Source of the DNA: Myxococcota bacterium
GTDB lineage: Bacteria > Myxococcota > XYA12-FULL-58-9 > JALHOP01
Direction: 5' to 3'
Assembly (NCBI GenBank): GCA_022842935.1
Contig: JALHOP010000007.1
Coordinates: forward strand, 77,592 to 141,591
Length of the DNA: 64,000 nt
Under the pieces are notes generated by a model, which was not told where the DNA came from, searched no databases, and saw only the letters and a program-made list of their open reading frames with translations. A program made the position numbers and the translations under genes. Of the stretch, positions 7,929 through 61,095 are shown one piece after another. Every line of letters begins with the position of its first letter. Positions within the stretch are counted from its first letter, which is position 1.

Positions 7929-8023
7929 GAATCACCTCTAGTTTCCAGCTTGAGCCAAAGCGTTTTTCGCATCGCGAACCCCAAAAAGGCCCCATCCCGG
8001 CGACCCGCGGCTGAATTGCTGCG

Positions 8024-25799: not shown

Positions 25800-26138
25800 G
25801 ACGGGGGGCGCGGCGAGCAAGCAGAGTGCCACGATGTCATGGTTGCTAACTGGTTGAATTTACGTTGTCCTTGTGTGGTTGTTATGACCACAGTGTGGGT
25901 TTGTATCCACTTTGTGCCCACTATTGCCCTCACTTTTACCCCACACGGATGACTTCGAGCTCGGAAGCCTCGCGGTCGAAGCCGGCGCGCGCCTGGACGG
26001 GGTGCCCTTCCGCATCGGTTGGTCGACTGGCGATGATGAACATGCCACATGTGGATCGACGGCGTGCCGATGCCGGAGCTTGCCGATGGGTCCGAGCTGC
26101 CGAGCGTCGAAGGAGAAGCACGAGTTACCGGGCGCAAC

Positions 26139-27170
26139 ATGAACAAAGCCGTCTCGCATGACTTGAAGCTTGGGCGATGGCGACTTCATGCGCTCTGCCT
26201 TACCTGCCTCGTCGCGTTCAACGGTTGCGCTACCGAGTCAGCCCGCATCAACCCGCACGACGTCGCCGCGGCACTGCTCGGCGAGATGAACCCGGCCCCG
26301 ACCATCGACGACCTGCGTGACGCTCGGCAGCGCGCAAACCCTTCGCGCCGGCTGCTCCTCGAGCGGGTGCTTGCCGTTCTCGAGACAGCGCCCGCCGAGC
26401 GCACTGCCACGGGTGCTAGCTTCGATCGCTTCTTGCAGGTGCTCCGCGATCTCATCGACTCCGCGCAAGCGGACGTCGAGGCGCGCCGCGCATATGTTTC
26501 CGCCTTCGTGCAAGCGTCGATTTCACCGGCGCCGCCGCTCAGCGACCCAGCCGTGCTCGCTGACGAAGCCCTGGCGCACGCGCGACGCCTGGTTGCCGCT
26601 TTTCCCGGGGACGGCAAGAGTTATCGGGTGCTCGCCGAGGCGCTAGGCAACGCACAAGAAGACCAGGTCGCTGTGGGCGTGGCGTATAAGCAATGCGTGG
26701 CGCTCGCCCCGGCTGCGGGGTCGTGCGTGGTTCGGCTCGATGCCATCCGCGAGCGATTGCGGGCCCCGCATTGTGGCGGCTCCCAGGTCGCGAGGGCTCT
26801 GGTCTTTCATGCGGCGACCGATGACGGCCAGCTCAGCGAGGAGCCGCAGCTCACACTCGAGGCGACGCCAGTGCTCACCGCAGTTGATATCGCGACGATC
26901 GCGGTCGACCCGACGTCGGACCGGGCGCTCGACATCAGCATCACGCCAGCCGCGGCAAAGACGTTCGGTTTGACGACGGCGCGCCTTGCAGCCTCGCGTT
27001 CCTGGCTCGTCATGCGACTCGGCGAGGTGTCGGTCATCGCCGCACGCGTCACGGGTCCCATGCCCGACGGCGTGATGAGACTCCACACGGCGCGGGAGCC
27101 GGCGATCGACGTTCTACGCAGGCTGTGCGTGACACTCGAGCGGCGCGCCTTGCCACCTGAGCTGCAATAG
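26139..27170 (+). CDS. hypothetical lipoprotein
   Basis: Signal peptide with lipobox (VAFNGCATES) from the Met at MNKAV. Helical, TPR-like composition. Confidence 0.5.
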   Translation: MNKAVSHDLKLGRWRLHALCLTCLVAFNGCATESARINPHDVAAALLGEMNPAPTIDDLRDARQRANPSRRLLLERVLAVLETAPAERTATGASFDRFLQVLRDLIDSAQADVEARRAYVSAFVQASISPAPPLSDPAVLADEALAHARRLVAAFPGDGKSYRVLAEALGNAQEDQVAVGVAYKQCVALAPAAGSCVVRLDAIRERLRAPHCGGSQVARALVFHAATDDGQLSEEPQLTLEATPVLTAVDIATIAVDPTSDRALDISITPAAAKTFGLTTARLAASRSWLVMRLGEVSVIAARVTGPMPDGVMRLHTAREPAIDVLRRLCVTLERRALPPELQ

Positions 27171-27236: not shown

Positions 27237-29423
27237 TCAGTGACCCTGTCCGCAACGGCTGCAGACGTGGGCGCGTCCTTCGAGACTCATGTCGCCGTCG
27301 CTCGCCGCGACCAGACGACCATTGCGGTCGAAGACCAGCGAGCCGGCGACAGCAGCCAAAATTTCGTTCGGCTTGCCAAAGCGGACGCGGGTGAAGCCAT
27401 AGCCGTCGGTGATGCGCTCGAGCTCGACCACGCCTTCGGCGCTCGTCCAGCCACCGACGCGCGCGGCAAGCGGGCCCTGACCACGCCGAGCAGAATCGAC
27501 GTCGCCGATGGTTGCGACGGGGAGGTCGCGGGTGATGCGCGGAGTGGTGTCAGCGGCGAGGAGGCCCCGTTCCCGCAGGATGCTCTCGAAGCGCGCAACG
27601 GACTCGGGCGACTCGGTTTCGCGCGCGCCGCGCAATAGAGCAGCACCGATATCGTGCAGGGAGCCGCCGTTCTCGGGCATGAACAGCATCGCGGCGTGTA
27701 ACGTGCTCGCGCTGACATCACGCACCCGTTGCACACTGGCGACCGGGTCGGTGGCGCCACGCGCCGCGTCGGACGCCTCGCGAGCGAAGTGCTCGTAGAG
27801 AGCACCCGAGATGATCCGTGAAACATAGTGGTGCTCACCGGCTCGGCTGCCGTCTGGCACTGGCGGGTTCCCGGATGCCGCCGGATCGAGCCCCGCGATG
27901 TCGCTGACGCGAAGCACGCTCGCGGCGTCACGCAGCGCTTGGTTGCCGTCGTCGGCTGGGTCGCGCGTGCTCGAAGCGATGGTGCGCGCGAGTTGTTCGG
28001 CGATACGAGAGACAGAGTTGCTACGGGTGAGATCGCCTTCCGTCTCGGCGAGGGCCGCACGAATCACCTCGGGAGAGTCGAACGCGGTGAGAAGCGCGAC
28101 CGAGTCGCCATAGGCCTCGTGCATGGCGCGCCCTGGCGCCGAGGAGAACATCGCTGGCATCAGCGTCGCGAGCGCCGCGTGACCCGCCTCATGGCTGCCT
28201 ACGAAGCGATCTTGAGCGAGTCGAACGAGCTGCCCGGTGAGTGGCCGGATGCGCGCGATCTCGAACCCCGCCCGCATGAGGTCGCCGCCATAGCGCGCGC
28301 GCGCGCTGAGGGTCAGAAATCTGTCGATGGGTAGAGGCTCTTCACCCGAGGGCGGCCTGGCAAAACCCCCAAAGAGCCTGCCCGCGAGGCCTCCGTTGGT
28401 TTGGCGCGGGTCAGTGATCGTCTCTCGCGCCCGCTCCGCGGTGAGGAGGCGCTCGACCTCGGCGACGTCGTCACGGCGGGCGGCGTCGACGATGGCGCGC
28501 AGCGCGGCAGCTTGCGCCCGCACTTCGCGCAAGCCGGCGGGATTGAGCTCGGGGCGACTTTCGGCGGAGAGGCGCGACTCTGTCTCGGAGACGGCACTCT
28601 CGCGCTCAGCGAGGGCGTGCTCGAGGAACGCGACGCTCGAGCCGTCGAGCGGCACCAGCCGCCCGTCCCGGACGTTACCCAGCGAGCCGAGTTGCACTTC
28701 ACGTGTGCCGCCAACGAAAAACGCGTTCAGCTCCACGCTGCTCGAGCCGACAAACGCGTTGGGGCGCACCGTGAGCTGACCGCCATCGCCCCAAGGGATG
28801 GGGCGCCGTGCCGCGCGCTCGGCCAAGGTGATGGTCTGGTTCGCGGCATAAAACGCGGTGGTCTGAGCCGTGTCCACCTCTGGGGCGTCGAAGTGGCCCT
28901 CGGCGTTGGCGGTCACGGGTGCGACCTGGCTCGGCTCGGTGATGACGTTGGTGGTGAGCAGGCCGATGAGCGGCAGCTGCGCAAGACCCGGGATGTTCGA
29001 CTCGGCCGTCTTGATGTCGCCATCGACGGCGATGCGCACACGCGGACCTTCGAGGAGCGAGGGCGCGTTACGCGTGCAATAAAAGGCGCTGCCGGGGAGG
29101 CTCGCAACCGTGGCTGGCCGACTTCCGTCGTCTTGGTGGACCCGGAGGTTTACCCCCGGGGTGGTGCAGATCGGCGGCCGCAAGGCGCCCGCTGAGCCTC
29201 GGGTGATTGGGGGAACACCGAACGGGAGCCCCGGTAGATTCACCTCGGGTCTCTGAACCTCGCGCTCGGGGTTGCGCACGTCGGTGGGGGCTGCGCCTTC
29301 GCCTGCACCTGCAAGGGCGGCACGGGAGGGGATACGGGTCGGCGCGATTGGAGTCACTTGCCTCGCATCCTCTCTGGTGCGCGATACACGCCACCTAGTT
29401 TCGTTCAGGATGTTTATCGGCAT
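27237..29423 (-). CDS. M4 (thermolysin-like) zinc metalloprotease homologue
   Basis: HEAGH (HExxH) motif followed about 20 residues later by HEAYGDS, which matches the thermolysin xEAxSD third zinc-ligand motif. No obvious N-terminal signal peptide. C-terminus ends CSRCGQGH. Start uncertain; the only Met is at 29423. Confidence 0.55.
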   Translation of the reverse strand: MPINILNETRWRVSRTREDARQVTPIAPTRIPSRAALAGAGEGAAPTDVRNPEREVQRPEVNLPGLPFGVPPITRGSAGALRPPICTTPGVNLRVHQDDGSRPATVASLPGSAFYCTRNAPSLLEGPRVRIAVDGDIKTAESNIPGLAQLPLIGLLTTNVITEPSQVAPVTANAEGHFDAPEVDTAQTTAFYAANQTITLAERAARRPIPWGDGGQLTVRPNAFVGSSSVELNAFFVGGTREVQLGSLGNVRDGRLVPLDGSSVAFLEHALAERESAVSETESRLSAESRPELNPAGLREVRAQAAALRAIVDAARRDDVAEVERLLTAERARETITDPRQTNGGLAGRLFGGFARPPSGEEPLPIDRFLTLSARARYGGDLMRAGFEIARIRPLTGQLVRLAQDRFVGSHEAGHAALATLMPAMFSSAPGRAMHEAYGDSVALLTAFDSPEVIRAALAETEGDLTRSNSVSRIAEQLARTIASSTRDPADDGNQALRDAASVLRVSDIAGLDPAASGNPPVPDGSRAGEHHYVSRIISGALYEHFAREASDAARGATDPVASVQRVRDVSASTLHAAMLFMPENGGSLHDIGAALLRGARETESPESVARFESILRERGLLAADTTPRITRDLPVATIGDVDSARRGQGPLAARVGGWTSAEGVVELERITDGYGFTRVRFGKPNEILAAVAGSLVFDRNGRLVAASDGDMSLEGRAHVCSRCGQGH

Positions 29424-29862
29424 GCTGACGCCGATGGTGCGTGAAAGTGCAAAGGGCTATAGTCGCCAGTCTGTGGCGTTCGTTCGCGTAGCATCACGTG
29501 GCAGCAGCATGTGGCCGACGCTCCGGCACGGCGACACCTTGCTCGTCGACAACATGGCGCCGCCCGCCGTTGGCGACATCGTCGTGCTGCGAGCGGGTGA
29601 GGGGAGCTTTATCGCCCACCGTCTGGTGGCCATGGCAAACGGCCTGGTGCGTTGCACGAATGCCCGCGGCGAGCCCGACCCCTGGGTCAGTCGAGACCAT
29701 GTGTTCGGGCGGGTCGCCTGTGTCGAGCGCGATGGGCGCTTGCTCGCGGTTGGGCGCGAACCGCCAAATGTGCGTATCCTTTGGGCGTTGCGTTCGAGCT
29801 ATGGTCTAGCGCGACGCATCGCGCATCGCGTGCGCAGGAGCCTTCGTGATCGCCAAGCGTAA
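29410..29862 (+). CDS. S26-family signal peptidase of the ER/archaeal (SipW-like, Ser/His) type
   Basis: Catalytic Ser box GSSMWPTLRHGDTLLVD, then GDIVVLR. A His (IAHRL) sits where bacterial type-I SPases carry the general-base Lys, as in Sec11/SipW-type enzymes. Start approximate; Mets are available at 29410, 29422 and 29434. Confidence 0.6.
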   Translation: MFIGMLTPMVRESAKGYSRQSVAFVRVASRGSSMWPTLRHGDTLLVDNMAPPAVGDIVVLRAGEGSFIAHRLVAMANGLVRCTNARGEPDPWVSRDHVFGRVACVERDGRLLAVGREPPNVRILWALRSSYGLARRIAHRVRRSLRDRQA

Positions 29863-30121
29863 GTCACATGTCGTCGCGCGCCAGGTCGACGACGAAGCCG
29901 TGCTCGTGCCCATCCGCAACGACGCGTCGACGCCGCTCGCCATTCACGCCTTGGGGCCGGTCGCCGCTTTCGTATGGGGATTGTTGGATGGGGCGCGGGC
30001 GAGCGATGTCATCGCGGACATGGTGAGCGACGAGTTCGAGGTCGACGCGGCCACGGCGCGCGTTGACGTCGCGACCTTCTTGACCGAGCTCGAGGCTGCG
30101 GGTCTCGTGGAGGTCACATGA
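29846..30121 (+). CDS. PqqD-family protein (RiPP recognition element / peptide chaperone)
   Basis: Canonical PqqD/RRE pattern (VVARQVDDEAVLV...AAFVWGLLDGARASDVIADMVSDEFEVDAATARVDVATFLTELEAAGLVEV). Its stop overlaps the radical-SAM start (ATGA). Confidence 0.7.
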   Translation: MIAKRKSHVVARQVDDEAVLVPIRNDASTPLAIHALGPVAAFVWGLLDGARASDVIADMVSDEFEVDAATARVDVATFLTELEAAGLVEVT

Positions 30122-31230
30122 CCGACGTTGCCGCAAGCAAAGGTGACAATGGCGCTGTTCGTGACCTGTACCAGCGCGCGCTGCGGAAGCGGCGCATCCC
30201 CATGCAAGCGATCTTCGAGCTCACGTTGCGTTGCAACTTGCGGTGCGATCACTGCTACCTGGGAAGTGATCGCAAGCGTGACGAGCTGTCGACTGCCGAG
30301 GTCACGCGCATCCTCGATGAGCTCGCGGGTGCGGGGACGCTCATTCTCACGTTGACCGGCGGCGAGGTCATGCTGCGGCCGGACTTCGAAGACATTTATC
30401 GGCACGCCATCGCGCGCGGATTTTTGGTCAGCGTGTTCACCAACGCGACGCTCATCAAGCCTCGCCACGTCCAGCTGTTCAAGGAGCTGCCGCCACGCGT
30501 CGTCGAGGTCTCGCTGTACGGCTTGAGTGACGACGACTACGTCGACTTCACGCATGCGACGATCCCTTTTGCCGACGTCGACGCCAACCTGCGCGCGCTC
30601 AAGAGCGCGGGCGTCCATTTCGTCTTGAAGAGCGTCGCGACGGTCACGCTGGGTCCCAAGATCCGAGCCATGCGCGCCTACGCCGAAGCGCTCGGTGTGC
30701 ACTTCCGATTCTCGACGACAGTCTACGGCGCCAATGACGAGACGGCGCTTGCCGACCACGAGCGACCCTCGGCCGAGACAGTCTGCGACAACGAGCGCGG
30801 CATCGTGCCAGTCGAGAGCCCGAACCGCGTGCCGCTCCCAACTCTTCCGAATCGTGTCTTCAACTGCGGAGCGGGTCGCGTCGCCATGCACGTCGACCCC
30901 GAAGGCATCGCTTCGCGTTGTGGCATCGTTACGAGCGCGCTTGGCGCACACACCGACTTGCGCAAGGTTTCGGTGCGCGAAGCCTGGGAGCGATTGGGCG
31001 TTGGCCTCGACGACGAGCTGGCCGAGGGGCATCCGTGCCGCGACTGTGAGATTAGGGCGCTATGCCACCGGTGCCCTGCGACCTCGACGCCCGAGCAAGA
31101 GATCGCCATGTGCGAGACTGCGCATGCCCGGGCGCGCGAGCTCGACCTTCAGGTGGCGGCGGTAGCGCCGATGCGCCAATTCTGGCAACCTCGGGAAGAG
31201 TCGATCTTGAAGCGGAGATTTCGTGGCTGA
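30118..31230 (+). CDS. radical SAM / SPASM-domain peptide-modifying enzyme
   Basis: CNLRCDHC (CxxxCxxC) radical-SAM cluster motif. C-terminal SPASM Cys cluster (FNCGAGR...CRDCEIRALCHRCP). Confidence 0.85.
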   Translation: MTDVAASKGDNGAVRDLYQRALRKRRIPMQAIFELTLRCNLRCDHCYLGSDRKRDELSTAEVTRILDELAGAGTLILTLTGGEVMLRPDFEDIYRHAIARGFLVSVFTNATLIKPRHVQLFKELPPRVVEVSLYGLSDDDYVDFTHATIPFADVDANLRALKSAGVHFVLKSVATVTLGPKIRAMRAYAEALGVHFRFSTTVYGANDETALADHERPSAETVCDNERGIVPVESPNRVPLPTLPNRVFNCGAGRVAMHVDPEGIASRCGIVTSALGAHTDLRKVSVREAWERLGVGLDDELAEGHPCRDCEIRALCHRCPATSTPEQEIAMCETAHARARELDLQVAAVAPMRQFWQPREESILKRRFRG

Positions 31231-31390
31231 CAGCAACCATCCGGCGCGCAAGCGCAAAGCCTATCAGCCACCGAAGCTCGAGACCGTCGAGGTCGTCGCC
31301 GAGGAAGCGCTGCTCGCTCTCTGCGCTTTCGGTGGTGGAACGCCCCAGACCGTCATGCAGGGCGCCCCCTGCGAGGTCTGCAAGAGTTGA
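31223..31390 (+). CDS. candidate RiPP precursor peptide (55 aa, not in the ORF track): VADSNHPARKRKAYQPPKLETVEVVAEEALLALCAFGGGTPQTVMQGAPCEVCKS
   Basis: GTG start overlaps the radical-SAM stop (GTGGCTGA) and is preceded by GCGGAG. It sits directly between the maturase and the kinase. Charged N-terminal leader-like half, a Gly-Gly-Gly junction, a core with three Cys and a C-terminal Ser. Confidence 0.5.
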   Translation: MADSNHPARKRKAYQPPKLETVEVVAEEALLALCAFGGGTPQTVMQGAPCEVCKS

Positions 31391-31421
31391 CGGGTGGGCG
31401 CCGCTCGCGTTTGTAGCGGGC

Positions 31422-32255
31422 GTGCGTGACATTGCTTTTGGGCCCATCGCTCTGCGCATCGCCGGAGACCTCGCGGCTGTTCGCTGGCCGCTCGGGGCCG
31501 ACGACGTGCAGGTCGCTCCGCGGGTAGGCGCGAAAGTCGTGCACACCGAGCTCGTCGACGACCTACCGCCGCTCGCGAACCCGACCATCGACACGGGGGT
31601 GTGGCGCGCCGCTGCCTCGGGAGACGGCACGCGCTTCGCAATCACGGTTCCTCCTGACGCTCGCGTCGTCGCCGATTTTCACTGGGGTACATCGATGGTT
31701 TTGCGCGTTGTTCGCGATTTCATCGGCTTCGACCGCGCCCCCTGGTTCGACATCCTCGTACAGCTTGCGGTGGCCGAGATGGCGCCTTCCTGCGCAGGCT
31801 TGGCGCTCCATGCGGCCTGCCTCGAGATCGGGGGTCGCGCTGTACTCCTGTGTGGGCGTTCGGGGGCAGGCAAGACCACGCTCGCTGGCCGCCTAATCCG
31901 TGCGGGGGGGCATCTGATGAGTCATGATCGAACAATCCTGTTCGGAAGCGGCGCATGGCGTGCCGTTTCGACTCCCTGGGGACACGATGGAAGGTTGGCG
32001 AGCGCCGAGCGCGAACGGGATGTCGGCGCTGTCTTGTTTCTCGAGCAAGCCCCCGTCAACAGTAGTGAACGACTGACCGGCGTGCGTGGTATGGCGCGCG
32101 TTGGGTCGGTGGTGCTCGGAGCCCGGTCTGCCAAAGCGGTTATGAGCAAAGCAATGGAAGTGGCGGAGCACCTCGTGCGTGAGGTGCCCTGCCACGTCGT
32201 GCGTTTGACGAACGACGAGCGAGCGACGGAACACGTGCTGGAGTTGTTGCGATGA
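31422..32255 (+). CDS. HprK-like P-loop kinase (HPr kinase C-terminal domain homologue)
   Basis: LLCGRSGAGKTTLAGRLIRAGGHLMSHDRTILF matches the HprK C-domain pattern GxSGxGKS...GHxLxxDD. Start placed at the first in-frame GTG after the precursor stop. The ORF-track frame extends upstream over the precursor and radical-SAM gene and is unlikely to be real there. Confidence 0.6.
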   Translation: MRDIAFGPIALRIAGDLAAVRWPLGADDVQVAPRVGAKVVHTELVDDLPPLANPTIDTGVWRAAASGDGTRFAITVPPDARVVADFHWGTSMVLRVVRDFIGFDRAPWFDILVQLAVAEMAPSCAGLALHAACLEIGGRAVLLCGRSGAGKTTLAGRLIRAGGHLMSHDRTILFGSGAWRAVSTPWGHDGRLASAERERDVGAVLFLEQAPVNSSERLTGVRGMARVGSVVLGARSAKAVMSKAMEVAEHLVREVPCHVVRLTNDERATEHVLELLR

Positions 32256-35203
32256 GATTCGCAGTTTTGGTGATTGTGGGCTCGGCCCTCCTGGCGAGTA
32301 GCGCAAACGCCGCCTACATCGCCAACATCACCATCGACGGAAATGCCGCAGACTGGAGCGGCATGTATCAGTTTCGTGACCGCAACGAGACGACCCAGAC
32401 TGGTACCGACATCCCCGACCGCTACGATGTCGACACCGTCTACGTCGCGAATGACGGCACGTACCTGTACTGGGCGATCAACACGTACGGTGCGATCAGC
32501 GGTAACCTCTCATGGCGCATCTACGTCGACCCGAACAACGACACGGCTTCGGGTGGCGGCTACGGCCAAGACGACCGCTACGTCGAGTTCGATACCAACA
32601 ACGGCACCTGCCAGGCAGTGACCGTCCACGACGCCGACAACAATGCGGTGCGCAACCCTGCCATCGGGTGCGGGAACGGCGCCAACATCAACGTGGCTTT
32701 CAGCGGCACCTTCATCGAGGGGCGCATCTTGCTTTCGCGCCTTTTCACGACGGTCCCCACCGGCGGCAACCTCAACATCGGCGTCCTCGTGCAGGTCATT
32801 CCGAACACGGGCAACACGGCGACCGAGCTCGCGCCGGGGCAGCCGCTTCCGTCGTTCATCGACTACGACAATCGTGGCACTCTGGTCCCCACCTTTGTCC
32901 GCGTCCGCGGACTGACCGCCGAAGCAGCTGAAGGTGGCGTACTCGTGCGTTGGCGCACGAGCGCTGAGTACTTCAGCGCCGGTACCTGGGTGGTCCGGGC
33001 GAGCGGCGACGACTGGGTGCCCGTAAGTGGCGAACCTTCCGCGACACAGAACCAGGCGACCGGCGACAGTTACGCCGTGGTCGATGCCAATGGAGGGCCG
33101 GGGGACATCTACGCGCTCGTCGAAGTCGACAGCCGCACTATCGTGCGCGTCTTCGGGCCCGTGACGGCCGTGAAGAGCGCCGTGACCTTGCCCACGCGCT
33201 CACAGCGTCTCGCCAGCAACCTGACGAGCAACGCCCGTCGCATCGCGTCCCTCGATCAGCGCCTGCGCGTGCGCACCGCTGCCCTGGACAACATCCTGAG
33301 TGGCGGCCCGCTCCCCGGGCGCTTCCCGCAGCTCGACGTCGATGTAACCCGCGAAGGTCTATTCGTCGTCTGCGATAGCGATACGCTACGTTATGGTGGC
33401 GTGCCTGCGAAGATCACGCGCGGCGCCGAGGTCGTACGTGGCTTTGCGGTGAGTACGCCGTGCGCGGGCCTTGGCTTCTACGCGCCGGCTCCGAGCTCGC
33501 CCTACGCGCCGTTCGACGTCTACCGCGTGCAACTCGCGGCCGCGCGCAACCTCTCGCTCATCGACGCGCCCCTCGTGACGACGTACGACGGCCCCGTATC
33601 ATTGGCAACGCTGTCCACGCTCGTGACACCGCGCCGCTATCTCGACATGCGCGACGGGCAGCCCAACCGTTTCTTCTGGAGCTACGCCTCGACCTCGCCA
33701 AGCGCTCCCGTCGACCTTCCCGCGATTCCGGGTTACGCCGACATGACCGTCGACGTGCATCCGCTCTCTGGCGGCGCGACGCACACCCTCGTGGTTGCGA
33801 CCGATCGCGAGCTTGGTCGCTACACGGTCGGTGACGGTTGGAGCCGAATCGACTTCACCAACCTGGCGGTGAACGGCGCTCCGGCTCTCACCTTCGTGGT
33901 CGAAGCAGAACAAGGCGTCATCGAGACGGTCTTGCTCGCCGACGCTACCGTCCGCTATCGCGGCGAGCCTGCCCAGGCCGAAAACGGTGTGCATTTCGGC
34001 GCCGACGGTGACAGCTGGGTCGGTGTCCGAGGCGGCGAAGGTTTCGCCTTCGATGTCACGCAACCGCGCGACCCAAGCCTCCTCGTCGTCGCCCCATACG
34101 CGAACGGCACCGTCGTACACACGCAACCCGAGACCCGCGATGTCTTCATCGCCAAGACCTTCACGAAGCTCCAAGCCGTGCCCACCCTCGTCGATGCGTT
34201 CATTGACGAGCCGGGGAGCGGCGCCGAATACCTAGTTCTCACACCGGCCTCGCTCGTGGACACCGCGCGTGAGCTCGCACAGCTGCGGGCCGAAGAGGGG
34301 ATGAGCACAGCGGTGCTCTCCTACGAGGCTGTCTACGCGCGTTTCACTGGCTCGAACCCCGACCCGACGGCCGTCGCGAAGCTCCTCGATTGGGCCGCTG
34401 TCCGCTGGAGCGTCGCACCGCGCTACCTCGTGCTCGTAGGTAGCACGAGCTCGGACCCGTATGGCTATACTGGGTCGCAGCGGCTCGCCGACGCGCCCAT
34501 CGCCGAGAGCTTGGACCCCGACTTTACCTACCGGCGCTTCAGTGACCGCGACCTCACGGGCTCGCATCAGGTCGCCGTCGGGCGCATTCCTACCTCTGAC
34601 GCTTATGAGCTTGGCCGCTACGTCGAGAAACTCCGCGCCCACCGCGAGCGGAGCGCAACGGGCGTCTGGTCAGTACTCGCTGGGGCCTCGACCCCCGATG
34701 AGCCCTCGTATGCTGGCCTCGTCAACAACATCGCGGCGCAGGTCGCCGAGTCGGTGACCATCGATCGCTTGGACGACGCAACCACCGTTGACCTCGTGAA
34801 TGCATGGGGCGCGGCCGACGTCATTGCCTACGCTGGTCACGGCGATGCCGAGTCGTGGGCAGACGACGTGCTCTACACCGAGCTTGCGCCAAACCTCGTG
34901 ACGGAGCGGCCACCCGTGACCCTTTCTGCGGCTTGCATGGACGCAATGACCACCAGCGCCAACGGAGGCCTCGCCTGGTCCTTGGTGTCCGCTGAAGTGG
35001 GTCGCGGTAGCATCGCAGCCATTGCGCCAAGCAGCATCATCGAGCCTATCAGGGCCTCTGCGTTCCTCGGACGGGCGGCTGCAGCCATCGCGCACGGTGA
35101 GGCGGCGCGCTGGGGGGATGCCTGGTTGCTCGCGCAGATGAGTGATACGAGTGTCGCCGCGCGGTCGATGGTGCTCATCGGCGACCCAGCGCTCAGCCCA
35201 TGA
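32252..35203 (+). CDS. secreted C25 (gingipain-like) cysteine peptidase family protein, 983 aa
   Basis: Sec signal peptide (ALLASSANA-AY). C-terminal region carries VIAYAGHGD (His box) and TLSAACMD (Cys box) in the order and spacing seen in the C25 catalytic domain. Its ATG overlaps the kinase stop (ATGA). Confidence 0.55.
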   Translation: MRFAVLVIVGSALLASSANAAYIANITIDGNAADWSGMYQFRDRNETTQTGTDIPDRYDVDTVYVANDGTYLYWAINTYGAISGNLSWRIYVDPNNDTASGGGYGQDDRYVEFDTNNGTCQAVTVHDADNNAVRNPAIGCGNGANINVAFSGTFIEGRILLSRLFTTVPTGGNLNIGVLVQVIPNTGNTATELAPGQPLPSFIDYDNRGTLVPTFVRVRGLTAEAAEGGVLVRWRTSAEYFSAGTWVVRASGDDWVPVSGEPSATQNQATGDSYAVVDANGGPGDIYALVEVDSRTIVRVFGPVTAVKSAVTLPTRSQRLASNLTSNARRIASLDQRLRVRTAALDNILSGGPLPGRFPQLDVDVTREGLFVVCDSDTLRYGGVPAKITRGAEVVRGFAVSTPCAGLGFYAPAPSSPYAPFDVYRVQLAAARNLSLIDAPLVTTYDGPVSLATLSTLVTPRRYLDMRDGQPNRFFWSYASTSPSAPVDLPAIPGYADMTVDVHPLSGGATHTLVVATDRELGRYTVGDGWSRIDFTNLAVNGAPALTFVVEAEQGVIETVLLADATVRYRGEPAQAENGVHFGADGDSWVGVRGGEGFAFDVTQPRDPSLLVVAPYANGTVVHTQPETRDVFIAKTFTKLQAVPTLVDAFIDEPGSGAEYLVLTPASLVDTARELAQLRAEEGMSTAVLSYEAVYARFTGSNPDPTAVAKLLDWAAVRWSVAPRYLVLVGSTSSDPYGYTGSQRLADAPIAESLDPDFTYRRFSDRDLTGSHQVAVGRIPTSDAYELGRYVEKLRAHRERSATGVWSVLAGASTPDEPSYAGLVNNIAAQVAESVTIDRLDDATTVDLVNAWGAADVIAYAGHGDAESWADDVLYTELAPNLVTERPPVTLSAACMDAMTTSANGGLAWSLVSAEVGRGSIAAIAPSSIIEPIRASAFLGRAAAAIAHGEAARWGDAWLLAQMSDTSVAARSMVLIGDPALSP

Positions 35204-37107
35204 AACAGGTCCTCCCTGTTGTACTTCTAGTTTGCGTGTTCGCGGCGTGCTCCGGTGACGGGAGCGAGGCGCTACTGCGGGTCGACGCGCGCGGTGTCCA
35301 AGCGCTGCGCTCCGCGCTCGACCTCGCCACTGGTCGTCTCACCATCAACTGCACCGACGGGCGTCGGTTCGACGTACCGGTCGCGCTCGATGCAATCGAG
35401 CCGCCGGGGCAAGAGCTGACCGTGGCGGTCCCTGCGTGCGGCGATGCGCGCATCGAGTTCCAAATCCTTTCGGGCGTCGGCGTCCCCGAGCTACGGGGCG
35501 CGAACGACGCCGTCCTCGTGCCGGGCTTCGTGGATGTGGAGATCCCGCTCGGCTATGTTGGCCAGCTCTCACTAAGTCTTGCCACTGACTCGCTCGTCGA
35601 GAGCTGCGTCGCCGTGGTCGAGCGCACCTCACCCGATCGCGTCCTCGTCGAAAGCGCGCTCACGCTGACCCGCACCGAAGTGACGTCGCTCATCGTCCCC
35701 ATCGGTAGCTACGACGTCACGTGCGACGGCCGCATCGCCCAGACTCTCGTGAGCCCGGGCCTCAACGTCGACGTCGCCCTCATTGACCCGGTGCCCGGTC
35801 CGCGGCTCATCAGCACCACCCTGCAGCCGAGCTATCCGCCGACCACCGCGCGCATCGACGTGACCTTCACATTTTCGGCGCCGGTGACTGGTGTCGACGC
35901 GAGTAGCGTGAGCCTCGACAACGACGGCACCATCCAGGCCGTGAGCGGGAGCGGTTCGAGCTACACCGTGACCTTCAATGGCCTCAACATTGGCACTGAC
36001 TACATCGTCACCCTGTCAGCCAGCATCGTCGACAGCGAAGGTCTTCCCCTGGTCGGCGCTCCGCTCCGCCTGCCCTTCCGCATCCGCGCCAACGAATACT
36101 TCGTGTCGACAGCTGGCGACGACAGCGTCAACAGCGGCACCGACCCGACGAGCCCTTGGCGCAATATCGCGTTTGCGGTGGCCAGTGCCTCGACGCCCGC
36201 GCGCATCTACGTCGCCGCTGGTACGTATGACGAGCAGGTGTTTCTCGCCAGCGATGTCACCATCGAAGGCGGCTGGTCAGCGGACTTCGTGACACGCGAC
36301 CTTGCCACTAACGAGAGCCGTGTCCGCGCGAGCAATCAGACGGTCTTTTTCGGCAGTGTCGGCAACGCCGTTGTCGATGGGCTGACCATCGAAGCGACGC
36401 AGCCGCAGCAAGTCGTGGTGATGCAGAACGCCGATGCCACCTTGCGTAACTGCATCGTCACCGGAGCGGGAGGAACCTTTCCGACTGGCTATGGCGTGTT
36501 CATCGAAGGCCTGGGTCTACCGAGTCTCGTCAACAACGTCATCGCGGTGTCGGCGGGCTCTTCGAGCACCTACGCGGTCTTCGTTCAGAACGGCGGTAGC
36601 GCCCGCGTCATCCACAACACCATCGACGCGGGTGATCGTGGCATCGTCTCCGGTGTCTACCTCGACAGCGCCGCGGGCGACGTCAGCATCGTGAACAACC
36701 TCTTTGTTGGTGGCACCACCGTCAACACCCGCGTCGGCATCACCGGGGAAGCGCCTCCTACCGCCCTTGTGAACAACGCGTTCTCGGCCGAACACGATGA
36801 TGCGTATCGCAACGCCGCTGGCACCGGGCTTCCCATCGGCGCGGCCGGTGACTTCGGCTTTACCGCGCCGCACCGCTTTAGCGGCAACGTGCTCGTGGCA
36901 GCTACCGCAGCCTTGGTTAGCGGTGGCGACTACCGCAGCACACCCGACAGCTCACTCCAGATCGGCATTGACTCGGCGCCCGCGGATTGCGGATTCACAG
37001 ACACCTCCGCCTACCCGTGTTTCGGTCCGACGACGGACCGCTTGGGACAGGCGCGCGCGGTCCCGACGACGGTTGGTGCCTACGCGTCCGGTGCCGGAGC
37101 GCTTTGA
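35200..37107 (+). CDS. lipoprotein with right-handed parallel beta-helix (pectate-lyase-like) repeats
   Basis: Lipobox LLVCVFAAC. Repeated beta-helix rungs (NAVVDGLTIEA, LRNCIVTGAGG, LVNNVIAVSAG, VIHNTIDAGD, SIVNNLFVGG). Its start overlaps the preceding stop (ATGA). Confidence 0.6.
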   Translation: MKQVLPVVLLVCVFAACSGDGSEALLRVDARGVQALRSALDLATGRLTINCTDGRRFDVPVALDAIEPPGQELTVAVPACGDARIEFQILSGVGVPELRGANDAVLVPGFVDVEIPLGYVGQLSLSLATDSLVESCVAVVERTSPDRVLVESALTLTRTEVTSLIVPIGSYDVTCDGRIAQTLVSPGLNVDVALIDPVPGPRLISTTLQPSYPPTTARIDVTFTFSAPVTGVDASSVSLDNDGTIQAVSGSGSSYTVTFNGLNIGTDYIVTLSASIVDSEGLPLVGAPLRLPFRIRANEYFVSTAGDDSVNSGTDPTSPWRNIAFAVASASTPARIYVAAGTYDEQVFLASDVTIEGGWSADFVTRDLATNESRVRASNQTVFFGSVGNAVVDGLTIEATQPQQVVVMQNADATLRNCIVTGAGGTFPTGYGVFIEGLGLPSLVNNVIAVSAGSSSTYAVFVQNGGSARVIHNTIDAGDRGIVSGVYLDSAAGDVSIVNNLFVGGTTVNTRVGITGEAPPTALVNNAFSAEHDDAYRNAAGTGLPIGAAGDFGFTAPHRFSGNVLVAATAALVSGGDYRSTPDSSLQIGIDSAPADCGFTDTSAYPCFGPTTDRLGQARAVPTTVGAYASGAGAL

Positions 37108-37134
37108 CGCCGCGCTCGCGGCGGAGCCTGGCCG

Positions 37135-39564
37135 GTGCGAGCGCGTCGAACCTGTGCGACACTGCTATCGATGAGGCGAAGGCTCACACTGTTCGCGCTG
37201 CTGTCTAGTTGCTCGGTCGATCTCCAGATCCCGGATGCTGCGGACATCGCCTGCGAGAGCGACGATGACTGCCCATCGGGCTTCATCTGCGATGTGCGCA
37301 GTCAGTGCCGCAGCCCGGAGGTCGCGGCGCGCGGTGTCCCCGGGTTCGACATTACTCCGACGACCGTCACCGTCGGGGAGTCCGGCACGCCGACGGTCGT
37401 TAACGTGCGCCTCACCGCGCAGCCGACCGCGGCGGTCACTCTCGTGCTCGCGCCCGATGACGGCAGCGAAGCGTTCATCTCCAAGAATGTGCTGACGTTT
37501 ACACCGGAAAACTACAACATCGCTCAAGCAGTCACGGTCGTCGGCGAGCGCGACTGCCTCGCGGACGGGCCCATCGTCTCGCACATCCTGATTTCTCCGG
37601 CCCAGAGTCTGGACCCCGACTACAACGGCCTCGACGCGCCAGATCTGGAAGTCACCACCAACGACGACGTGCCTTCCGCGGGGATCGTGGTTACGCCTCC
37701 CAGCGGCCTCGAGACCAACGAGAGCGGCAACGTGACCCAGTTCACCGTCGTCGTCGCTTGTAAGCCCACGGCGGACGTTCATTTTACCCTGGCGTCGACG
37801 GACGAAACCGAAGGCACCATCACCACGACTGAGCTCACTTTCACGCCTGACAACTGGGCGGTCCCGCGCGTCATCAACGTAGCGGGCAAGGGTGACTGCG
37901 AAACCGACGGTGACGTCACCTATGCCGTCGATCTCGGTAGGGTCGCGAGCGACGACCCGCTCTACGCGGGCATCGATGCGCCGAACGTCGAGCTCGTCAA
38001 TCGTGACGTTGTTTTCGGGCGGGTCAACGTCTCGCCCAACAACGGCCTGCGGACCACCGAAGGCGGCGGGCAAGCGACGTTCTCGGTGACGCTCACTTGC
38101 GCGCCGAGCGCCAATGTCATCGTGCCGATTGGCACAGGTGACGGAAGCGAAGGCACTCCGGGCGCGACGACGAGCCTCACGTTTACTCCGGCCAACTGGG
38201 GCGAGCCGCAAGCGGTCATCATCACCGGCGTAAATGACTTCTACGACGACGGTAACATTGCGTACGCCATCACCACCGGCACGCTCAATAGCACCGACCT
38301 TGGCTTCAATGGGCTCGATCCTGTCGATGTCAGCGTTACCAACGAAGACGACGACACAGCGAGCGTCACCGTGACCCCGACCACCGGTCTGCACACGACC
38401 GAAGCCGCGGGCACGGCGCAGTTCAGCATTCAGCTCGGGGCCGAGCCCCTATCACCCGTGCAGATCGCCATCGCCAGCACCGACACAGCCGAAGGGACCG
38501 TCGTCGGCACCACGGTGACGATCGCCGACCGCAATCCACGTTTCATCACCATCACCGGCGTGAACGACCCGGTCGACGACGACAACAAGAGTTACACCAT
38601 CACGCTGGGCGACATCGTCAGCAGCGACCCCGCCTTTAGCGGCATGGCGGTGCCCGACGTCGCAGTCATCAACGACGACGACGACACCGCGGGATTCACG
38701 CGCTGGGAGAACGCTGTATACGTCACCGAGGCGGGCAGCACCGCGGACGTGCGGCTCAGTCTCGCCTCGAGGCCGAGCGCCGACGTCAATTGCGTGGTCG
38801 ACGACACGTTCAACGACAACGAGATCCGTGTGGGCACTACCGGTTCGGTGAACGTGACGTTTACGCCGGTGACCTACGGCCTGTTGCAGTCGGTGACCGT
38901 GACGGGGGTGAACGACGGCGTCGCTGATGGCCTCTCGAATCCGTTGCCTTCGGTCCGTACCCAGTGCACGTCCGCGGACCCAAAGTACAACGGCATGCAA
39001 TACTACGTGACAGCCTACACCATCGAGCCGGCCAGCTCGCGGCGCGTCTACCAGACCGCAACAGCGGGCTACACCGGCAATCAGATCGCGATCACCACGG
39101 CTGACACCATTTGTCAGAACAACAACCCCATCGGCAGCGGCACCTGGAAGGCGATGCTCACCTCGTCGGATCCTACGGCGCCATCGGCGTTGCGGCGCGC
39201 CTGCACGACGCCCAACTGTGTCAGCAGTAGTGAGAATCAAAACTGGGTCTTCAGGCCGGCCTTCACGTATTACTGGTCCGGTGTGAACGGCATCGTCGGC
39301 ACGACGAACGCCGCTGGCATCTTCACCGGCATGATCGATGGCACACCGCCTAGCTCGGGCACCGCAGGTTTCGCTGGCTACTGGACCGGCATGAGCGCCG
39401 ATTTCACGAACAACGCCAATTGCAACAATTGGTCGACCACCAGCGGCACGGGGTCGGTTGGTCTCGACCGCCAGTCCACTGTCGGCAACACATTCGGCTG
39501 GAATCCGGGCATCGCCACCTTCGACTGCACCCAGACCCATCAGCTGCTGTGCATCGAGCAGTGA
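37135..39564 (+). CDS. lipoprotein with roughly six tandem 95-aa Ig-like repeats and a C-terminal C-type-lectin-like domain
   Basis: Lipobox LFALLSSC. Repeating unit VTPxxGLxTxExGxxAxFxVxL...LTFTPxNWxxPQxVxVxGxxD. The C-terminus ...WNPGIATFDCTQTHQLLCIEQ resembles the end of C-type lectin folds. Confidence 0.6.
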   Translation: MRARRTCATLLSMRRRLTLFALLSSCSVDLQIPDAADIACESDDDCPSGFICDVRSQCRSPEVAARGVPGFDITPTTVTVGESGTPTVVNVRLTAQPTAAVTLVLAPDDGSEAFISKNVLTFTPENYNIAQAVTVVGERDCLADGPIVSHILISPAQSLDPDYNGLDAPDLEVTTNDDVPSAGIVVTPPSGLETNESGNVTQFTVVVACKPTADVHFTLASTDETEGTITTTELTFTPDNWAVPRVINVAGKGDCETDGDVTYAVDLGRVASDDPLYAGIDAPNVELVNRDVVFGRVNVSPNNGLRTTEGGGQATFSVTLTCAPSANVIVPIGTGDGSEGTPGATTSLTFTPANWGEPQAVIITGVNDFYDDGNIAYAITTGTLNSTDLGFNGLDPVDVSVTNEDDDTASVTVTPTTGLHTTEAAGTAQFSIQLGAEPLSPVQIAIASTDTAEGTVVGTTVTIADRNPRFITITGVNDPVDDDNKSYTITLGDIVSSDPAFSGMAVPDVAVINDDDDTAGFTRWENAVYVTEAGSTADVRLSLASRPSADVNCVVDDTFNDNEIRVGTTGSVNVTFTPVTYGLLQSVTVTGVNDGVADGLSNPLPSVRTQCTSADPKYNGMQYYVTAYTIEPASSRRVYQTATAGYTGNQIAITTADTICQNNNPIGSGTWKAMLTSSDPTAPSALRRACTTPNCVSSSENQNWVFRPAFTYYWSGVNGIVGTTNAAGIFTGMIDGTPPSSGTAGFAGYWTGMSADFTNNANCNNWSTTSGTGSVGLDRQSTVGNTFGWNPGIATFDCTQTHQLLCIEQ

Positions 39565-39705
39565 ACGGTGAGGGTCCCTCGGCGCCCGCGTTGCGCGAAC
39601 CGACGAGCCTCGGACCTGCTACGCCGACAGGGTAGGCACGGCAACCGCGTATAAACCCGCGCCGATACAGCACCACCTCAAACCTAGCGCTGGGAGTGGT
39701 GTGCC

Positions 39706-40413
39706 ATGCTTGAGCAGACGACAAATGCCGTGAGCGGCTGGAAAGACTTCCCGGTTTCGCGGCAAATCAAAGACGCCATCAGCGGACGCGATAAGGTCTC
39801 GTCGTCGAGTGATGACGTGCCCGCCGCGGAGCGTTGGCTCGCGTCCGCTCTAGCGTCCATGGGGTTCCGCAGCCAAGGCGCGGGCGTCGACGTCCTGTAT
39901 TTCCCCGCGACCAAGCAATCCAGCGCAACGCTTCGGTTTCACACTGAAGTCGCCGGTCCCGTTCAGGTCACCATCGACAACGTCGACCTGCGCCGCGGCA
40001 AGCTCAGCTTGAACGCCTACGATACGACCACGAAGCTCGCGTTGGCCTTCGTGGAGCGGGTCGTCGAACGGGTCATGAACGATACCAACGGGGCCAAGCA
40101 GGCCTTCACCATCAGCCTTCGTCCGATGGGCCACTACCCCGATATGTCCGTCGCATTCTTCGCGCAGTCGTTGAACAAGCAGTTCGACTACGTCTTCGAC
40201 GATCGATCGAGCTCTGGCACGGCGAACGCCAACTGGAACGGCGTCCTCGCTGTGACGCGCGGCGGCAAGCTCGTCGACGAAGCCAGCATCTTGAAGCAGG
40301 TCCAGGGTTTCGTGGCGGAAGTGCTGAAAAAAGATGCCGCGATCACCAAGCGGCGGACCGTCAACGCGCTGTGGGGCTACACCATGAGCGACGCGGTCGA
40401 GCCCAAGAAATAG
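39706..40413 (+). CDS. hypothetical protein
   Basis: ORF with no signal peptide and no motif recognised. Confidence 0.45.
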   Translation: MLEQTTNAVSGWKDFPVSRQIKDAISGRDKVSSSSDDVPAAERWLASALASMGFRSQGAGVDVLYFPATKQSSATLRFHTEVAGPVQVTIDNVDLRRGKLSLNAYDTTTKLALAFVERVVERVMNDTNGAKQAFTISLRPMGHYPDMSVAFFAQSLNKQFDYVFDDRSSSGTANANWNGVLAVTRGGKLVDEASILKQVQGFVAEVLKKDAAITKRRTVNALWGYTMSDAVEPKK

Positions 40414-40486
40414 CCTCGATGAATACCCCCGCCCTGGGCGTCCGTCTTTGACGCTACGTTTTCGAGCTTTGAGACGGCTCTCGACC

Positions 40487-41407
40487 TTAGTCGGCTTCTA
40501 CATAGCCCTGCTTGAGCAGCTTGTGCACGTCCATGATGACCGCGTGGTCGGACCGCGGGTCCTTGTCGAGCACGTCTTGGTAGTGGTCGAAGTTCATGAT
40601 CGACTGCAGCGTGTCGAGCTCGCTCTTTGACAGGTCGGAGAGCCGCGGCATCATCGGAATGCTGACAATGAGCTTCGCTTCGCCCGCCGGCAGGTCTTTC
40701 TGGATGCGGCGGATCTCGTCGACCTGGCGTAGCGCTTCGATGAGCACGCTCTCGGTGTTCTCGGTGAAGTTCTCCGGGAACCGCATGCTCTCGTCGATAG
40801 GCTCGAGCTGGAACGAGCCGGCGCTCCACGTCATCATGCGCGCGATCGCCTTCATCGCTGGCAATGAGAGGCCCTTGATGACGGCAGACTGAAGCTGACC
40901 GTTCTTGATGTAAATCTGCCCGTTGTTCGGCCCCTTGATGGTCAAGGCGCCGGACTTGCGGTTGGTGGCGAACAGCTGCAGCAAGTCGGGCAGCGGCACC
41001 TCTTGCAGGTCGCCACTCATGGTCGTCGACTCGCCCGCGCGGTTGCCCAGAGCCTGCATCATGTCTTTGACGGACTTGGTGTCGCGGCGCCCCATGTCGA
41101 GCGTCATCTCGGATTCATCGATGAGCTTGAGGATCGACGTGCCGATGAGGATGCGGTCGTTGCGTTTGAGCTCGGCGCGGCGGATTTTTTCGCCGTTTAC
41201 GAAGGTGCCGTTGGTCGAGCCGAGGTCGGTGATCGACAGTTGGCCGCTTGCGACCGTGAGCTTTGCGTGTTTGCGCGACACCATGTCTTCGACGAGCACG
41301 AGGTCGAGGTCGCTTGCGCGCCCGATGAGCAACTCACCGTCATCGGGGATTGGAAACTCTCCGCCTACATATTTGCCGGAGATGAACTTGAAGGCGTTTT
41401 TACCCAT
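40487..41407 (-). CDS. FHA-domain protein with a C-terminal DUF4388-like domain
   Basis: FHA core (LLIGRASDLDLVLVEDMVSRKHAKL...TDLGSTNGTFVNGEKI). The C-terminal segment GALTIKGPNNGQIYIKNGQL is typical of DUF4388. Confidence 0.7.
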   Translation of the reverse strand: MGKNAFKFISGKYVGGEFPIPDDGELLIGRASDLDLVLVEDMVSRKHAKLTVASGQLSITDLGSTNGTFVNGEKIRRAELKRNDRILIGTSILKLIDESEMTLDMGRRDTKSVKDMMQALGNRAGESTTMSGDLQEVPLPDLLQLFATNRKSGALTIKGPNNGQIYIKNGQLQSAVIKGLSLPAMKAIARMMTWSAGSFQLEPIDESMRFPENFTENTESVLIEALRQVDEIRRIQKDLPAGEAKLIVSIPMMPRLSDLSKSELDTLQSIMNFDHYQDVLDKDPRSDHAVIMDVHKLLKQGYVEAD

Positions 41408-60900: not shown

Positions 60901-61095
60901 CGGATCGGCGTTGAAGAACGTGACGGGAAGATATCCCGCGCGAATGAGCGGGTCGTCTTGTCTTCCGAGCTGAACGACACGCGCCGGAAGTGGCGGCAGC
61001 GCGCGTGCGGCAGCGGGCAAGAACAGTCCGAGCAAAGCGACGACGACGATGGCGCGATGGTTCATGAGGGAGCTCATGAGCAATCGTTGCGCCAA
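57934..61095 (-). CDS. large secreted beta-helix protein with a Cys-rich module and a MYXO-CTERM-like C-terminal sorting tail
   Basis: Signal peptide. Long parallel beta-helix-like region. Cys-rich CGDGVCD...CGDCDGAQACGDGACS module. Ends RGGCAAIAVDGFALLVVLAVFLQLARGSR, i.e. a Gly-Cys motif, a hydrophobic helix and a basic tail. Confidence 0.6.
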   Translation of the reverse strand: MAQRLLMSSLMNHRAIVVVALLGLFLPAAARALPPLPARVVQLGRQDDPLIRAGYLPVTFFNADPSGQTDSTDAINAAILAARESGLIAYVPAGTYLVSGSLVGVQRYQLWACADHFGRPIAGEANIDYGTGWVMRKAPSLVGPSSGPRPIIRLADGAPGFGDPNNPRGVIHMYSNGPGYGYEPGWWGQFDCGMGIHLRNLEVHLGSGNPGAVGVRAPLAQWSSVQNVRVVANGGFAGFQGVVQTRVSVGLDVVGGRFGIILELGSETIAGARLTDQTEAAVVVSAYSPATLVGVEIEKATGPAIVIDRSGTISGPQTSQLTVVDSRIHVRGGGAPLVANAANESAGRSLFLQDVWMGGGSGPLVQSGSHVVGRAAGSEWTHITRYAYGDPWSRGDVANASYANGRLLDAPYVELEGTDSAPADLRLRHELPMLPAFDAPGVVNVLSLGARGDGTTDDSDALQRAFDAGGYVFMPRGDYRISRTIVLRSNTRVFGVPTGRSRLVTYGFTSGEPMLRTVDDADATIFVSDLQLLLDGDAARPALDWRAGPASVVSELYADLPWTPDRRGVNRAISRFSGHGGGRFYGLQLFQQYDGASEHPDHRTVLIDGTSAPLTFYASNMEYSNAPMMEVRNAQNIRFIGGNKTEVRLAYLMVSNTRNFMHSGVSGHCQFDFGVTCNASRRGDFDLFRITGGDNLLLANEAMYPDSHHMRATLVDDNVAWVDGTLNVGYYERGRFDASVFPHCGDGVCDVFFEASTCGDCDGAQACGDGACSASETCDSCAADCSCAGTSATIRPCSLEPAPSGSCADADPWSQADVIALGPEQAVIEPALGLTEPPATSADLSAKAMVAWDTEALYVRVGVTDERIEADAREVYERDSVELYLDGDGDRATSYGSDDWQITVGVDGAIGGVRGAPSGTVTKAERTTTGYAINYVVPWAALGGPPSVGHRFGFDLAVNDNDGAGRTTQIVLTRHAYGFLDTSGFEGAELEARACTEPRFTNFESTSLADNTFNGVEDVRGGCAAIAVDGFALLVVLAVFLQLARGSRSSTAG

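Follow-up and report, generated by a model that had tools for sequence, protein, structure and literature searches.

Orphan cassettes that pair a ScmC/HprK-like protein with a PqqD-family protein have long been catalogued without a known role, and to our knowledge neither the SynChlorMet (Scm) nor the HPr-rel-A cassette is defined with a C25 peptidase. Clan-CD cysteine peptidases are recurring natural transpeptidases (legumain ligases, glycosylphosphatidylinositol transamidase and PorU), and we know of none that has been reported as a constant part of any radical S-adenosylmethionine (rSAM) peptide cassette with a RiPP recognition element (RRE; RiPP, ribosomally synthesised and post-translationally modified peptide). 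Dedicated exported proteases that finish a cytoplasmically modified peptide are represented by NisP, the exported subtilisin of nisin. Here we analyse an operon in 64,000 nucleotides of Myxococcota DNA (contig JALHOP010000007.1, positions 77,592–141,591; hereafter the window) whose exported C25 peptidase is a conserved member of such a peptide cassette, across several phylum-level labels. The original prediction, made from the DNA letters, had joined this peptidase and two lipoproteins to the modified peptide, speculatively as an extracellular processing or display apparatus or as a surface protease complex regulated by the peptide; that C25 belongs invariably to a rare RRE/rSAM/kinase cassette is a narrower and firmer claim, and the corrected reading shifts the focus to a six-gene core, away from the two lipoproteins. 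The operon comprises eight tightly packed genes on the + strand (29.4–39.6 kb), and the last three, which are co-directional and encode exported proteins, lie in one operon with the peptide-maturation genes, as had been predicted:

29410..29862, + strand: S24/S26-like peptidase, soluble, operon gene 1 (Pfam Peptidase_S24 E 2e-6, also S26)
29846..30121, + strand: PqqD-family RRE, a peptide-binding chaperone (Pfam PqqD E 9e-15)
30118..31230, + strand: radical SAM/SPASM-type peptide maturase (Pfam Radical_SAM E 3e-23)
31223..31390, + strand: precursor peptide open reading frame (ORF), 55 aa, MADSNHPARKRKAYQPPKLETVEVVAEEALLALCAFGGGTPQTVMQGAPCEVCKS, a conserved ORF found in 8 loci between rSAM gene and ScmC-like gene
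31422..32255, + strand: ScmC/HprK-like P-loop protein (GRSGAGKTT), putative peptide kinase, start GTG 31422
32252..35203, + strand: exported C25 (PorU/gingipain-fold) cysteine peptidase, 983 aa (Pfam Peptidase_C25)
35200..37107, + strand: beta-helix lipoprotein, 635 aa (Big_5 nt 35842–36066; right-handed beta-helix nt 36097–36759)
37171..39564, + strand: Calx-beta-like repeat/DUF1554 lipoprotein, 797 aa (repeats nt 37342–39027; DUF1554 nt 39067–39456)

As in the SynChlorMet and HPr-rel-A cassettes, a PqqD-family protein is encoded together with an HprK-like P-loop protein (ScmC/HprK_rel_A); the Scm cassette also has rSAM/SPASM enzymes, and orthologues of the window ScmC/HprK-like protein have a precomputed match to Pfam PF27840 ScmC. 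The window proteins nevertheless score far under the curated cut-offs of both systems (score/cut-off: ScmC 24.7/125, ScmD 25.9/100, ScmE 46.5/400 and ScmF 47/400; HprK_rel_A, TIGR04352, 27.9/200 and PqqD_rel_X, TIGR04353, 17.1/35), and the NTP_transf_5 gene of HPr-rel-A is missing. Pfam Hpr_kinase_C and the NCBIfam HprK_rel_A/ScmC models match the window kinase-like protein weakly, all under cut-off, and the top NCBIfam matches of the rSAM protein are sactipeptide, mycofactocin and NirJ-type SPASM maturases, with every score under cut-off. Phosphorylated lasso peptide systems (paeninodin, pseudomycoidin) likewise combine a PqqD-type RRE, a cysteine protease, an HPr-kinase homologue and a Ser-ended precursor; their HPr-kinase homologues phosphorylate the C-terminal Ser of the precursor after which a nucleotidyltransferase of the PF14907 type attaches a glycosyl group to that phosphate (PMC8498205). 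The window cassette differs in having an rSAM enzyme, in lacking a lasso cyclase and a transglutaminase-type B2 protease, and in its protease, which is an exported C25 enzyme rather than a cytoplasmic one. The exported-finishing-protease logic that we propose for C25 is that of NisP, which belongs to another protease clan and whose nisin cluster encodes a transporter, NisT, whereas the window cassette encodes none. We found no paper or curated family for the association of C25 with rSAM and PqqD in the literature searched, which left out most subscription journals, and all that was retrieved was a broad overview of how rSAM enzymes take part in RiPP biosynthesis.

Judged from its sequence, the exported peptidase is a member of family C25 (clan CD) and is neither PorU nor a gingipain. 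Peptidase_C25 (PF01364) covers residues 660–982 over the whole model (E 7e-33, 114.8 bits against a cut-off of 23), the catalytic domain beginning at nt 34229. His863 (YAGHGD, codon 34838) and Cys895 (SAACMD, codon 34934) are 32 residues apart and follow the H-G…A-C order of clan CD (H863-G864, A894-C895), bearing out the predicted gingipain-like order of the His and Cys boxes. This dyad is conserved: His863 and G862 are invariant across every alignment made, distant relatives included, and Cys895 is invariant among the closest homologues and in a set of 7 sequences and is present in at least 90% of an 11-sequence alignment. The N-terminus, MRFAVLVIVGSALLASSANA/AY (…LLASSANA/AY), reads as a typical Sec signal peptide, and beta-sandwich domains (residues ~60–640) lie between it and the catalytic domain. 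No Pfam model matches the N-terminal 628 aa even at E ≤ 10. An N-terminal 'IDGxxxDW' domain was considered as a CBM9 domain by comparison with a 1053-aa protein of the window, and was set aside when BLASTP gave no significant match. The protein stops with its catalytic domain (…GDPALSP*) and has no match to a T9SS (type IX secretion system) tail (Por_Secre_tail, TIGR04183) at E ≤ 0.01, a domain that a bona fide PorU (P0007) shows in the same analysis; the absence of a type IX C-terminal domain (CTD) signal, noted in the original prediction, therefore stands.

PorU is both the top curated match (NF033707, E 7e-16) and the top structural match (6za2) of the window protein, whose YAGHG and TC motifs fall opposite the same motifs of PorU when the two are aligned; both are extracytoplasmic enzymes with large N-terminal beta-sandwich domains before the catalytic domain. 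The PorU model is nonetheless matched at 57 bits against a cut-off of 420, over residues 600–807 only, and there is no C-terminal domain. Window-type loci also carry the labels Myxococcota, Bdellovibrionales and Pseudomonadota rather than Bacteroidota, and the window gene sits in an rSAM/PqqD peptide cassette whereas the PorU gene does not. The gingipains RgpB and Kgp share the catalytic fold (4ief_D, template modelling (TM) score 0.60, root-mean-square deviation 4.4 Å over 362 columns) and the His…Cys order; unlike them, the window protein carries neither an Ig-like domain nor a CTD behind its catalytic domain, a gingipain prodomain cannot be recognised, and identity is ~14%. The AlphaFold2 model confirms the predicted caspase-like fold: confidence (predicted local distance difference test, pLDDT) is about 70–90 in the catalytic domain, with a mean of 60, and the top Foldseek matches are PorU 6za2 (E 8e-11) and RgpB 4ief (E 6e-10), followed by separases. 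The input alignment was shallow (11 sequences), few further C25 relatives having come from a profile search of a 5.8-billion-protein set, and the N-terminal 640 residues are poorly modelled. A PDB profile search with four orthologues returned PorU only, at a non-significant E of 0.26, so that the motif alignment with PorU does not by itself count as evidence.

The window C25 peptidase has very few full-length homologues: 5.8 billion clustered proteins yielded 3 (57–62% identity), and scanning 1.84 billion representatives exhaustively with HMMER brought in P0137 (35% identity) and two weaker full-length matches, P0145 and P0184. The loci of the close homologues (L001, L003 and L004) are syntenic with the window (PrkA-Usp … FHA-BamD) and contain the same operon. 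Outside this synteny the same partnership recurs in differing gene orders, and for that reason we count the C25 gene as a cassette member. In the non-syntenic L085, from a metagenome-assembled genome (MAG) labelled Pseudomonadota, the order is S24-PqqD-rSAM-58 aa peptide-ScmC-C25, with the next gene on the opposite strand; in L087/L088 (MAG labelled Myxococcales) it is AhpC-like-PqqD-rSAM-55 aa peptide-ScmC-C25, followed by miaA. The Acidobacteriota loci L035/L057 have PqqD-rSAM-peptide-ScmC-S24-C25, and L065 ('delta proteobacterium') has PqqD-rSAM-peptide-ScmC-x-x-C25-S24. L089, the sole locus returned by a metagenome scan, carries PqqD and rSAM genes divergent from the C25 gene, and these alone adjoin it in the flanking DNA examined. 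The full set of PqqD, rSAM, precursor and ScmC/HprK-like genes thus stands beside C25 in the four syntenic loci and in four unrelated contexts (L085, L087, L035/L057 and L065). Within these cassettes C25 usually comes straight after the kinase-like gene, often overlapping it, and an S24-like peptidase is the usual companion; the 4-nt ScmC/C25 overlap is retained in the window, L001, L003 and L085, and the two genes abut in L087.

A neighbour-joining tree built from C25 domains groups the window family with L085, L086 and L087 in a single clade and puts L035/57 and L065 inside an Acidobacteriota-type clade; the C25/cassette partnership therefore occurs in separate parts of the tree. PqqD and rSAM genes adjoin C25 in all lineages of the window clade with enough flanking sequence (the window, L001, L003, L004, L085, L087 and L089), and all seven except L089 also have a precursor ORF and a ScmC-like gene. 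The original prediction had named C25 homologues occurring only without rSAM and PqqD genes as the observation that would speak against it, and this is not what these lineages show. The recurrence also bears on the view that three ordinary surface-protein genes merely happen to lie downstream of an unrelated RiPP operon. Such a chance neighbourhood is plausible for the two lipoproteins and is refuted for C25 by its partnership in non-syntenic loci with different gene orders, and as an account of the locus we hold it to be very improbable indeed.

A GTDB-wide scan yielded 72 more distant C25 loci, mainly from Blastocatellia. At least one flanking gene matches an HprK-like, PqqD, NTP_transf_5, rSAM or S24 profile in 25 of the 72, and in those 25 the cassette-type genes nearly always lie on the C25 strand. 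Several Blastocatellia (L015, L017, L019, L023, L038, L067 and others) encode tandem giant proteins of 800–3600 aa, all terminated by C25, which often adjoin HprK_rel_A, PqqD, NTP_transf_5 and exopolysaccharide (EPS) export genes; we know of no role described for such tandem giants. Acidobacteriota loci also carry, beside C25, fusion proteins of ~160 aa from 'PqqD' genes (L007 14225–14803; L040 11126–11647; L013 5812–6306; L060 6213–6704; L081 12103–12603), which consist of a PqqD domain, a twin-arginine-like motif ('SRREVMRR'), a hydrophobic stretch running to AxA and a knottin-like C-x6-C-x6-CC-x3-C-x4-6-C tail, and which could serve as Cys-rich peptide precursors, either exported or anchored in the membrane. 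The cassettes of L035 (12117–15432) and L065 (13948–15093) abut Poly_export/SLBB, Wzz/GNVR and glycosyltransferase 4 genes, which hints at a connection to a cell-surface polymer that is missing in the window. In L004, the public gene call (GCA_034286235) places a 206-aa minus-strand ORF over the plus-strand ScmC-like gene (7468–8088 and 7595–8461), and the cassette is complete despite this call.

The two genes downstream of C25 have a different distribution. The first overlaps the C25 stop codon with its start (ATGA at 35200), as predicted, and its product has a lipobox, VFAAC, which reads as LVAC or ALSC in the orthologues and is conserved across all four. Its Pfam matches are all marginal (Beta_helix 26.4/25.9, NosD 26.3/23.6 and DUF1565 22.9/20.3), that to Big_5 is likewise just over cut-off, and the ends of the protein have no Pfam match even at E ≤ 10. 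The third exported protein, listed as an ORF at 37135–39564 (809 aa from GTG), has its real start at ATG 37171, from which it begins MRRRLTLFALLSSC, with a lipobox (LLSSC; LASC or TSAC in orthologues), and is identical to the 797-aa protein on record (P0017). About six Ig-like repeats had been predicted; we count five in tandem (110–114 aa each, residues 70–631, pairwise identity 25–45%). They are modelled confidently as beta-sandwiches (pLDDT 80–97) whose structural matches are Ig-like arrays. Single repeats have no Pfam match even at E ≤ 10, and their homologues at 35–44% identity have a PF03160 match and are named as Calx-beta domain-containing, among them giant proteins from Myxococcota and Planctomycetota. 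The C-terminal domain matches Pfam DUF1554 (PF07588; E 3e-25, 89.2 bits against 27.5), and with a weak score for the leptospiral endostatin-like LenF (NF047483, 33.9 against a cut-off of 400) the protein belongs with DUF1554 domain proteins rather than with Len orthologues; the pLDDT of this region is <50 (residues 622–784 of 797), giving no usable model for a C-type-lectin fold. A shared C-terminal sorting signal was considered for the two lipoproteins and rejected, their C-termini having nothing in common.

By phmmer, homologues of the beta-helix protein occur only in the four syntenic lineages and those of the DUF1554 protein in only three of these; in L004/L005/L011 the DUF1554 gene is absent and the beta-helix gene is the last of the operon. 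Neither gene occurs in L085, L087/L088, L035/L057 and L065, although these loci have all the rest of the cassette, and in L085 and L087/L088 the operon terminates with the C25 gene. The original prediction had raised the question of whether the three genes always travel with the rSAM genes: C25 does so in non-syntenic cassettes too, and the lipoproteins are confined to the syntenic sub-lineage. These distributions are difficult to reconcile with the proposal that the C25, beta-helix and Ig-repeat/DUF1554 proteins form one surface apparatus for processing or displaying the modified peptide. In its favour, all three are exported (via a signal peptide or lipobox), a 4-nt overlap joins the C25 gene to the beta-helix gene in the window as well as in L003 and L004, and there is no terminator-like site between the genes beyond chance. 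The overlap is, however, replaced by a 65-nt gap in L001, the DUF1554 gene is absent in L004/L005, and Calx-beta repeat proteins similar to the third protein are abundant in Myxococcota outside such loci, so that we assign a single apparatus a low probability. The two lipoproteins are best seen as envelope proteins appended in one Myxococcota/Bdellovibrionales-labelled sub-lineage, outside the conserved system, and would be co-transcribed accessories or, possibly, local partners or substrates of the C25 peptidase. Because the C25 and beta-helix genes are translationally coupled in three of the four lineages, a local functional tie to C25 is possible.

The conserved core therefore consists of a PqqD protein (RRE), an rSAM/SPASM maturase, a precursor of ~55 aa with two to three Cys, a ScmC/HprK-like kinase and the Sec-exported C25 peptidase. 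As far as genes can indicate, this is an RRE-dependent rSAM RiPP system, since the genes for a PqqD-type RRE and an rSAM maturase adjoin a short precursor ORF that is conserved. The precursor ORF, whose start overlaps the rSAM stop by 8 nt, is homologous in 8 loci, with Y-x-x-P and E-A invariant, as are one Cys and, further on, P…C; the window peptide has the leader K-x-Y-x-x-P…EEALLA and two Cys that do not vary, a number that rises to three within the close family. In 7 of the 8 loci the peptide ends in Ser or Thr, the window one in Ser, and in L087 it ends in Arg. The position of the precursor just before an HprK-like kinase gene suggests, by analogy with paeninodin-type lasso peptides, that the C-terminal Ser could be phosphorylated. 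The GG/T of the window precursor was considered as a double-glycine leader cleavage site and rejected, since it is not conserved in the orthologues.

We put at about an even chance a reading in which the operon is a RiPP-type cassette and C25 its extracytoplasmic processing protease or PorU-like transpeptidase. The PqqD protein would present the leader, with its YxxP motif, to the rSAM/SPASM enzyme for cross-linking of the precursor at its conserved Cys in the cytoplasm; the ScmC/HprK-like P-loop protein may then phosphorylate the C-terminal Ser/Thr, as in phosphorylated lasso peptides. The soluble S24-like enzyme is a candidate cytoplasmic leader peptidase, and the modified peptide would leave the cytoplasm via an unlinked transporter. 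Since a signal peptide is present in the clade members whose N-termini were read, the C25 enzyme would have to act beyond the inner membrane, where it might process the peptide either as a finishing protease in the manner of NisP or as a transpeptidase in that of PorU. If so, the cassette would represent a new RiPP-type pathway in which one step of maturation takes place outside the cytoplasm; it would also give the orphan ScmC/HprK-like + PqqD cassettes their first functional clue, and biotechnology a candidate enzyme for ligating or cyclising peptides.

Several observations count against this processing role. No exporter gene is present in any cassette examined, which leaves the meeting of a cytoplasmic peptide with a Sec-exported C25 enzyme unexplained, and no cleavage site can be named in the precursor, the window GG not being conserved. 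The S24-like second peptidase could itself be the leader peptidase, making the role of C25 less fixed, and phosphorylation of a C-terminal Ser/Thr cannot be universal because the L087 precursor ends in Arg. The four closest loci (window, L001, L003 and L004) amount to one observation because they are syntenic, the relatives of the C25 domain are for the most part giant surface proteins without a nearby rSAM gene, and the C25 model is of moderate confidence overall (mean pLDDT 60).

The missing exporter and the want of an obvious cleavage site would be accommodated if the modified peptide were instead an inhibitor, activator or cofactor-like ligand of C25, whose substrates would be other envelope proteins. 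The tight co-occurrence of the peptide, its maturation genes and C25 across contexts fits this reading, and PorU was crystallised in a latent form (title of 6za2), so that C25 enzymes are regulated. A ligand would, however, still have to get to the periplasm, the peptide sequence gives no hint of an inhibitor, and the literature searched holds no precedent; we regard this as distinctly unlikely.

The polysaccharide genes beside some cassettes bear on a further possibility, that C25 is a T9SS-independent PorU-like sortase for which the modified, possibly phospho-glycosylated peptide is substrate or acceptor, attaching the peptide or envelope proteins to a surface polymer. PorU, the nearest curated family and top structural match, acts as a sortase/transpeptidase (PMC4560394, PMC8545088). 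The cassettes of L035 and L065 abut genes of polysaccharide export and assembly (Poly_export, Wzz/GNVR, GT4) as well as an NTP_transf_5 gene, such a nucleotidyltransferase gene being present in L035/L057, and in lasso systems the pair of kinase and nucleotidyltransferase makes a phospho-glycosyl tail (PMC8498205). Near the window cassette, by contrast, there are no nucleotidyltransferase or EPS genes, the match to the PorU model reaches 57 bits where the cut-off is 420 and no acceptor is indicated, and we consider a sortase of this kind unlikely. To the same unlikely degree, the C25 clade could be a T9SS-independent transpeptidase recruited to RiPP synthesis, which would cyclise an rSAM-cross-linked peptide with a C-terminal phospho-Ser or ligate it covalently to a surface polymer or protein. 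This ribosomal-peptide 'sortase' logic might also account for the numerous Acidobacteriota loci in which C25-terminated giants have EPS loci and genes for PqqD, HprK-like and nucleotidyltransferase proteins alongside.

The first gene of the operon encodes the other peptidase. The S24/S26-like protein has an ambiguous start (candidates ATG 29410, 29422 and 29434), its NCBIfam match is the archaeal-type signal peptidase I, and an alignment of 9 homologues shows a conserved Ser (GSSMxP) and an H-R motif. It is short and without a membrane anchor, the His-Arg motif replacing the Lys of bacterial signal peptidases, and it is predicted to be of the endoplasmic reticulum/archaeal Ser-His type.

In addition to the junction of C25 and the beta-helix gene at 35200, ATGA stop/start overlaps join PqqD and rSAM at 30118 and the ScmC-like gene and C25 at 32252. 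The operon is flanked by housekeeping genes (Ppx/GppA, PrkA and Usp upstream; FHA, TPR and BamD downstream), and a promoter/terminator scan of 28800–40600 gave counts equal to shuffled expectation and does not inform the operon limits. A second beta-helix surface protein of the window (1053 aa; 57934–61095, − strand; Pect-lyase_RHGA_epim and CBM9 domains) has no sequence relationship to the beta-helix lipoprotein of the operon. Three ORFs around the operon (26049–27170, +; 27237–29423, −; 39706–40413, +) are missing from the syntenic loci, have no Pfam or NCBIfam match and look like window-specific insertions. The minus-strand ORF among them (27237–29423, 728 aa) contains a zinc-metalloprotease-like HEAGH (HExxH) motif and begins right beside the S24-like gene.

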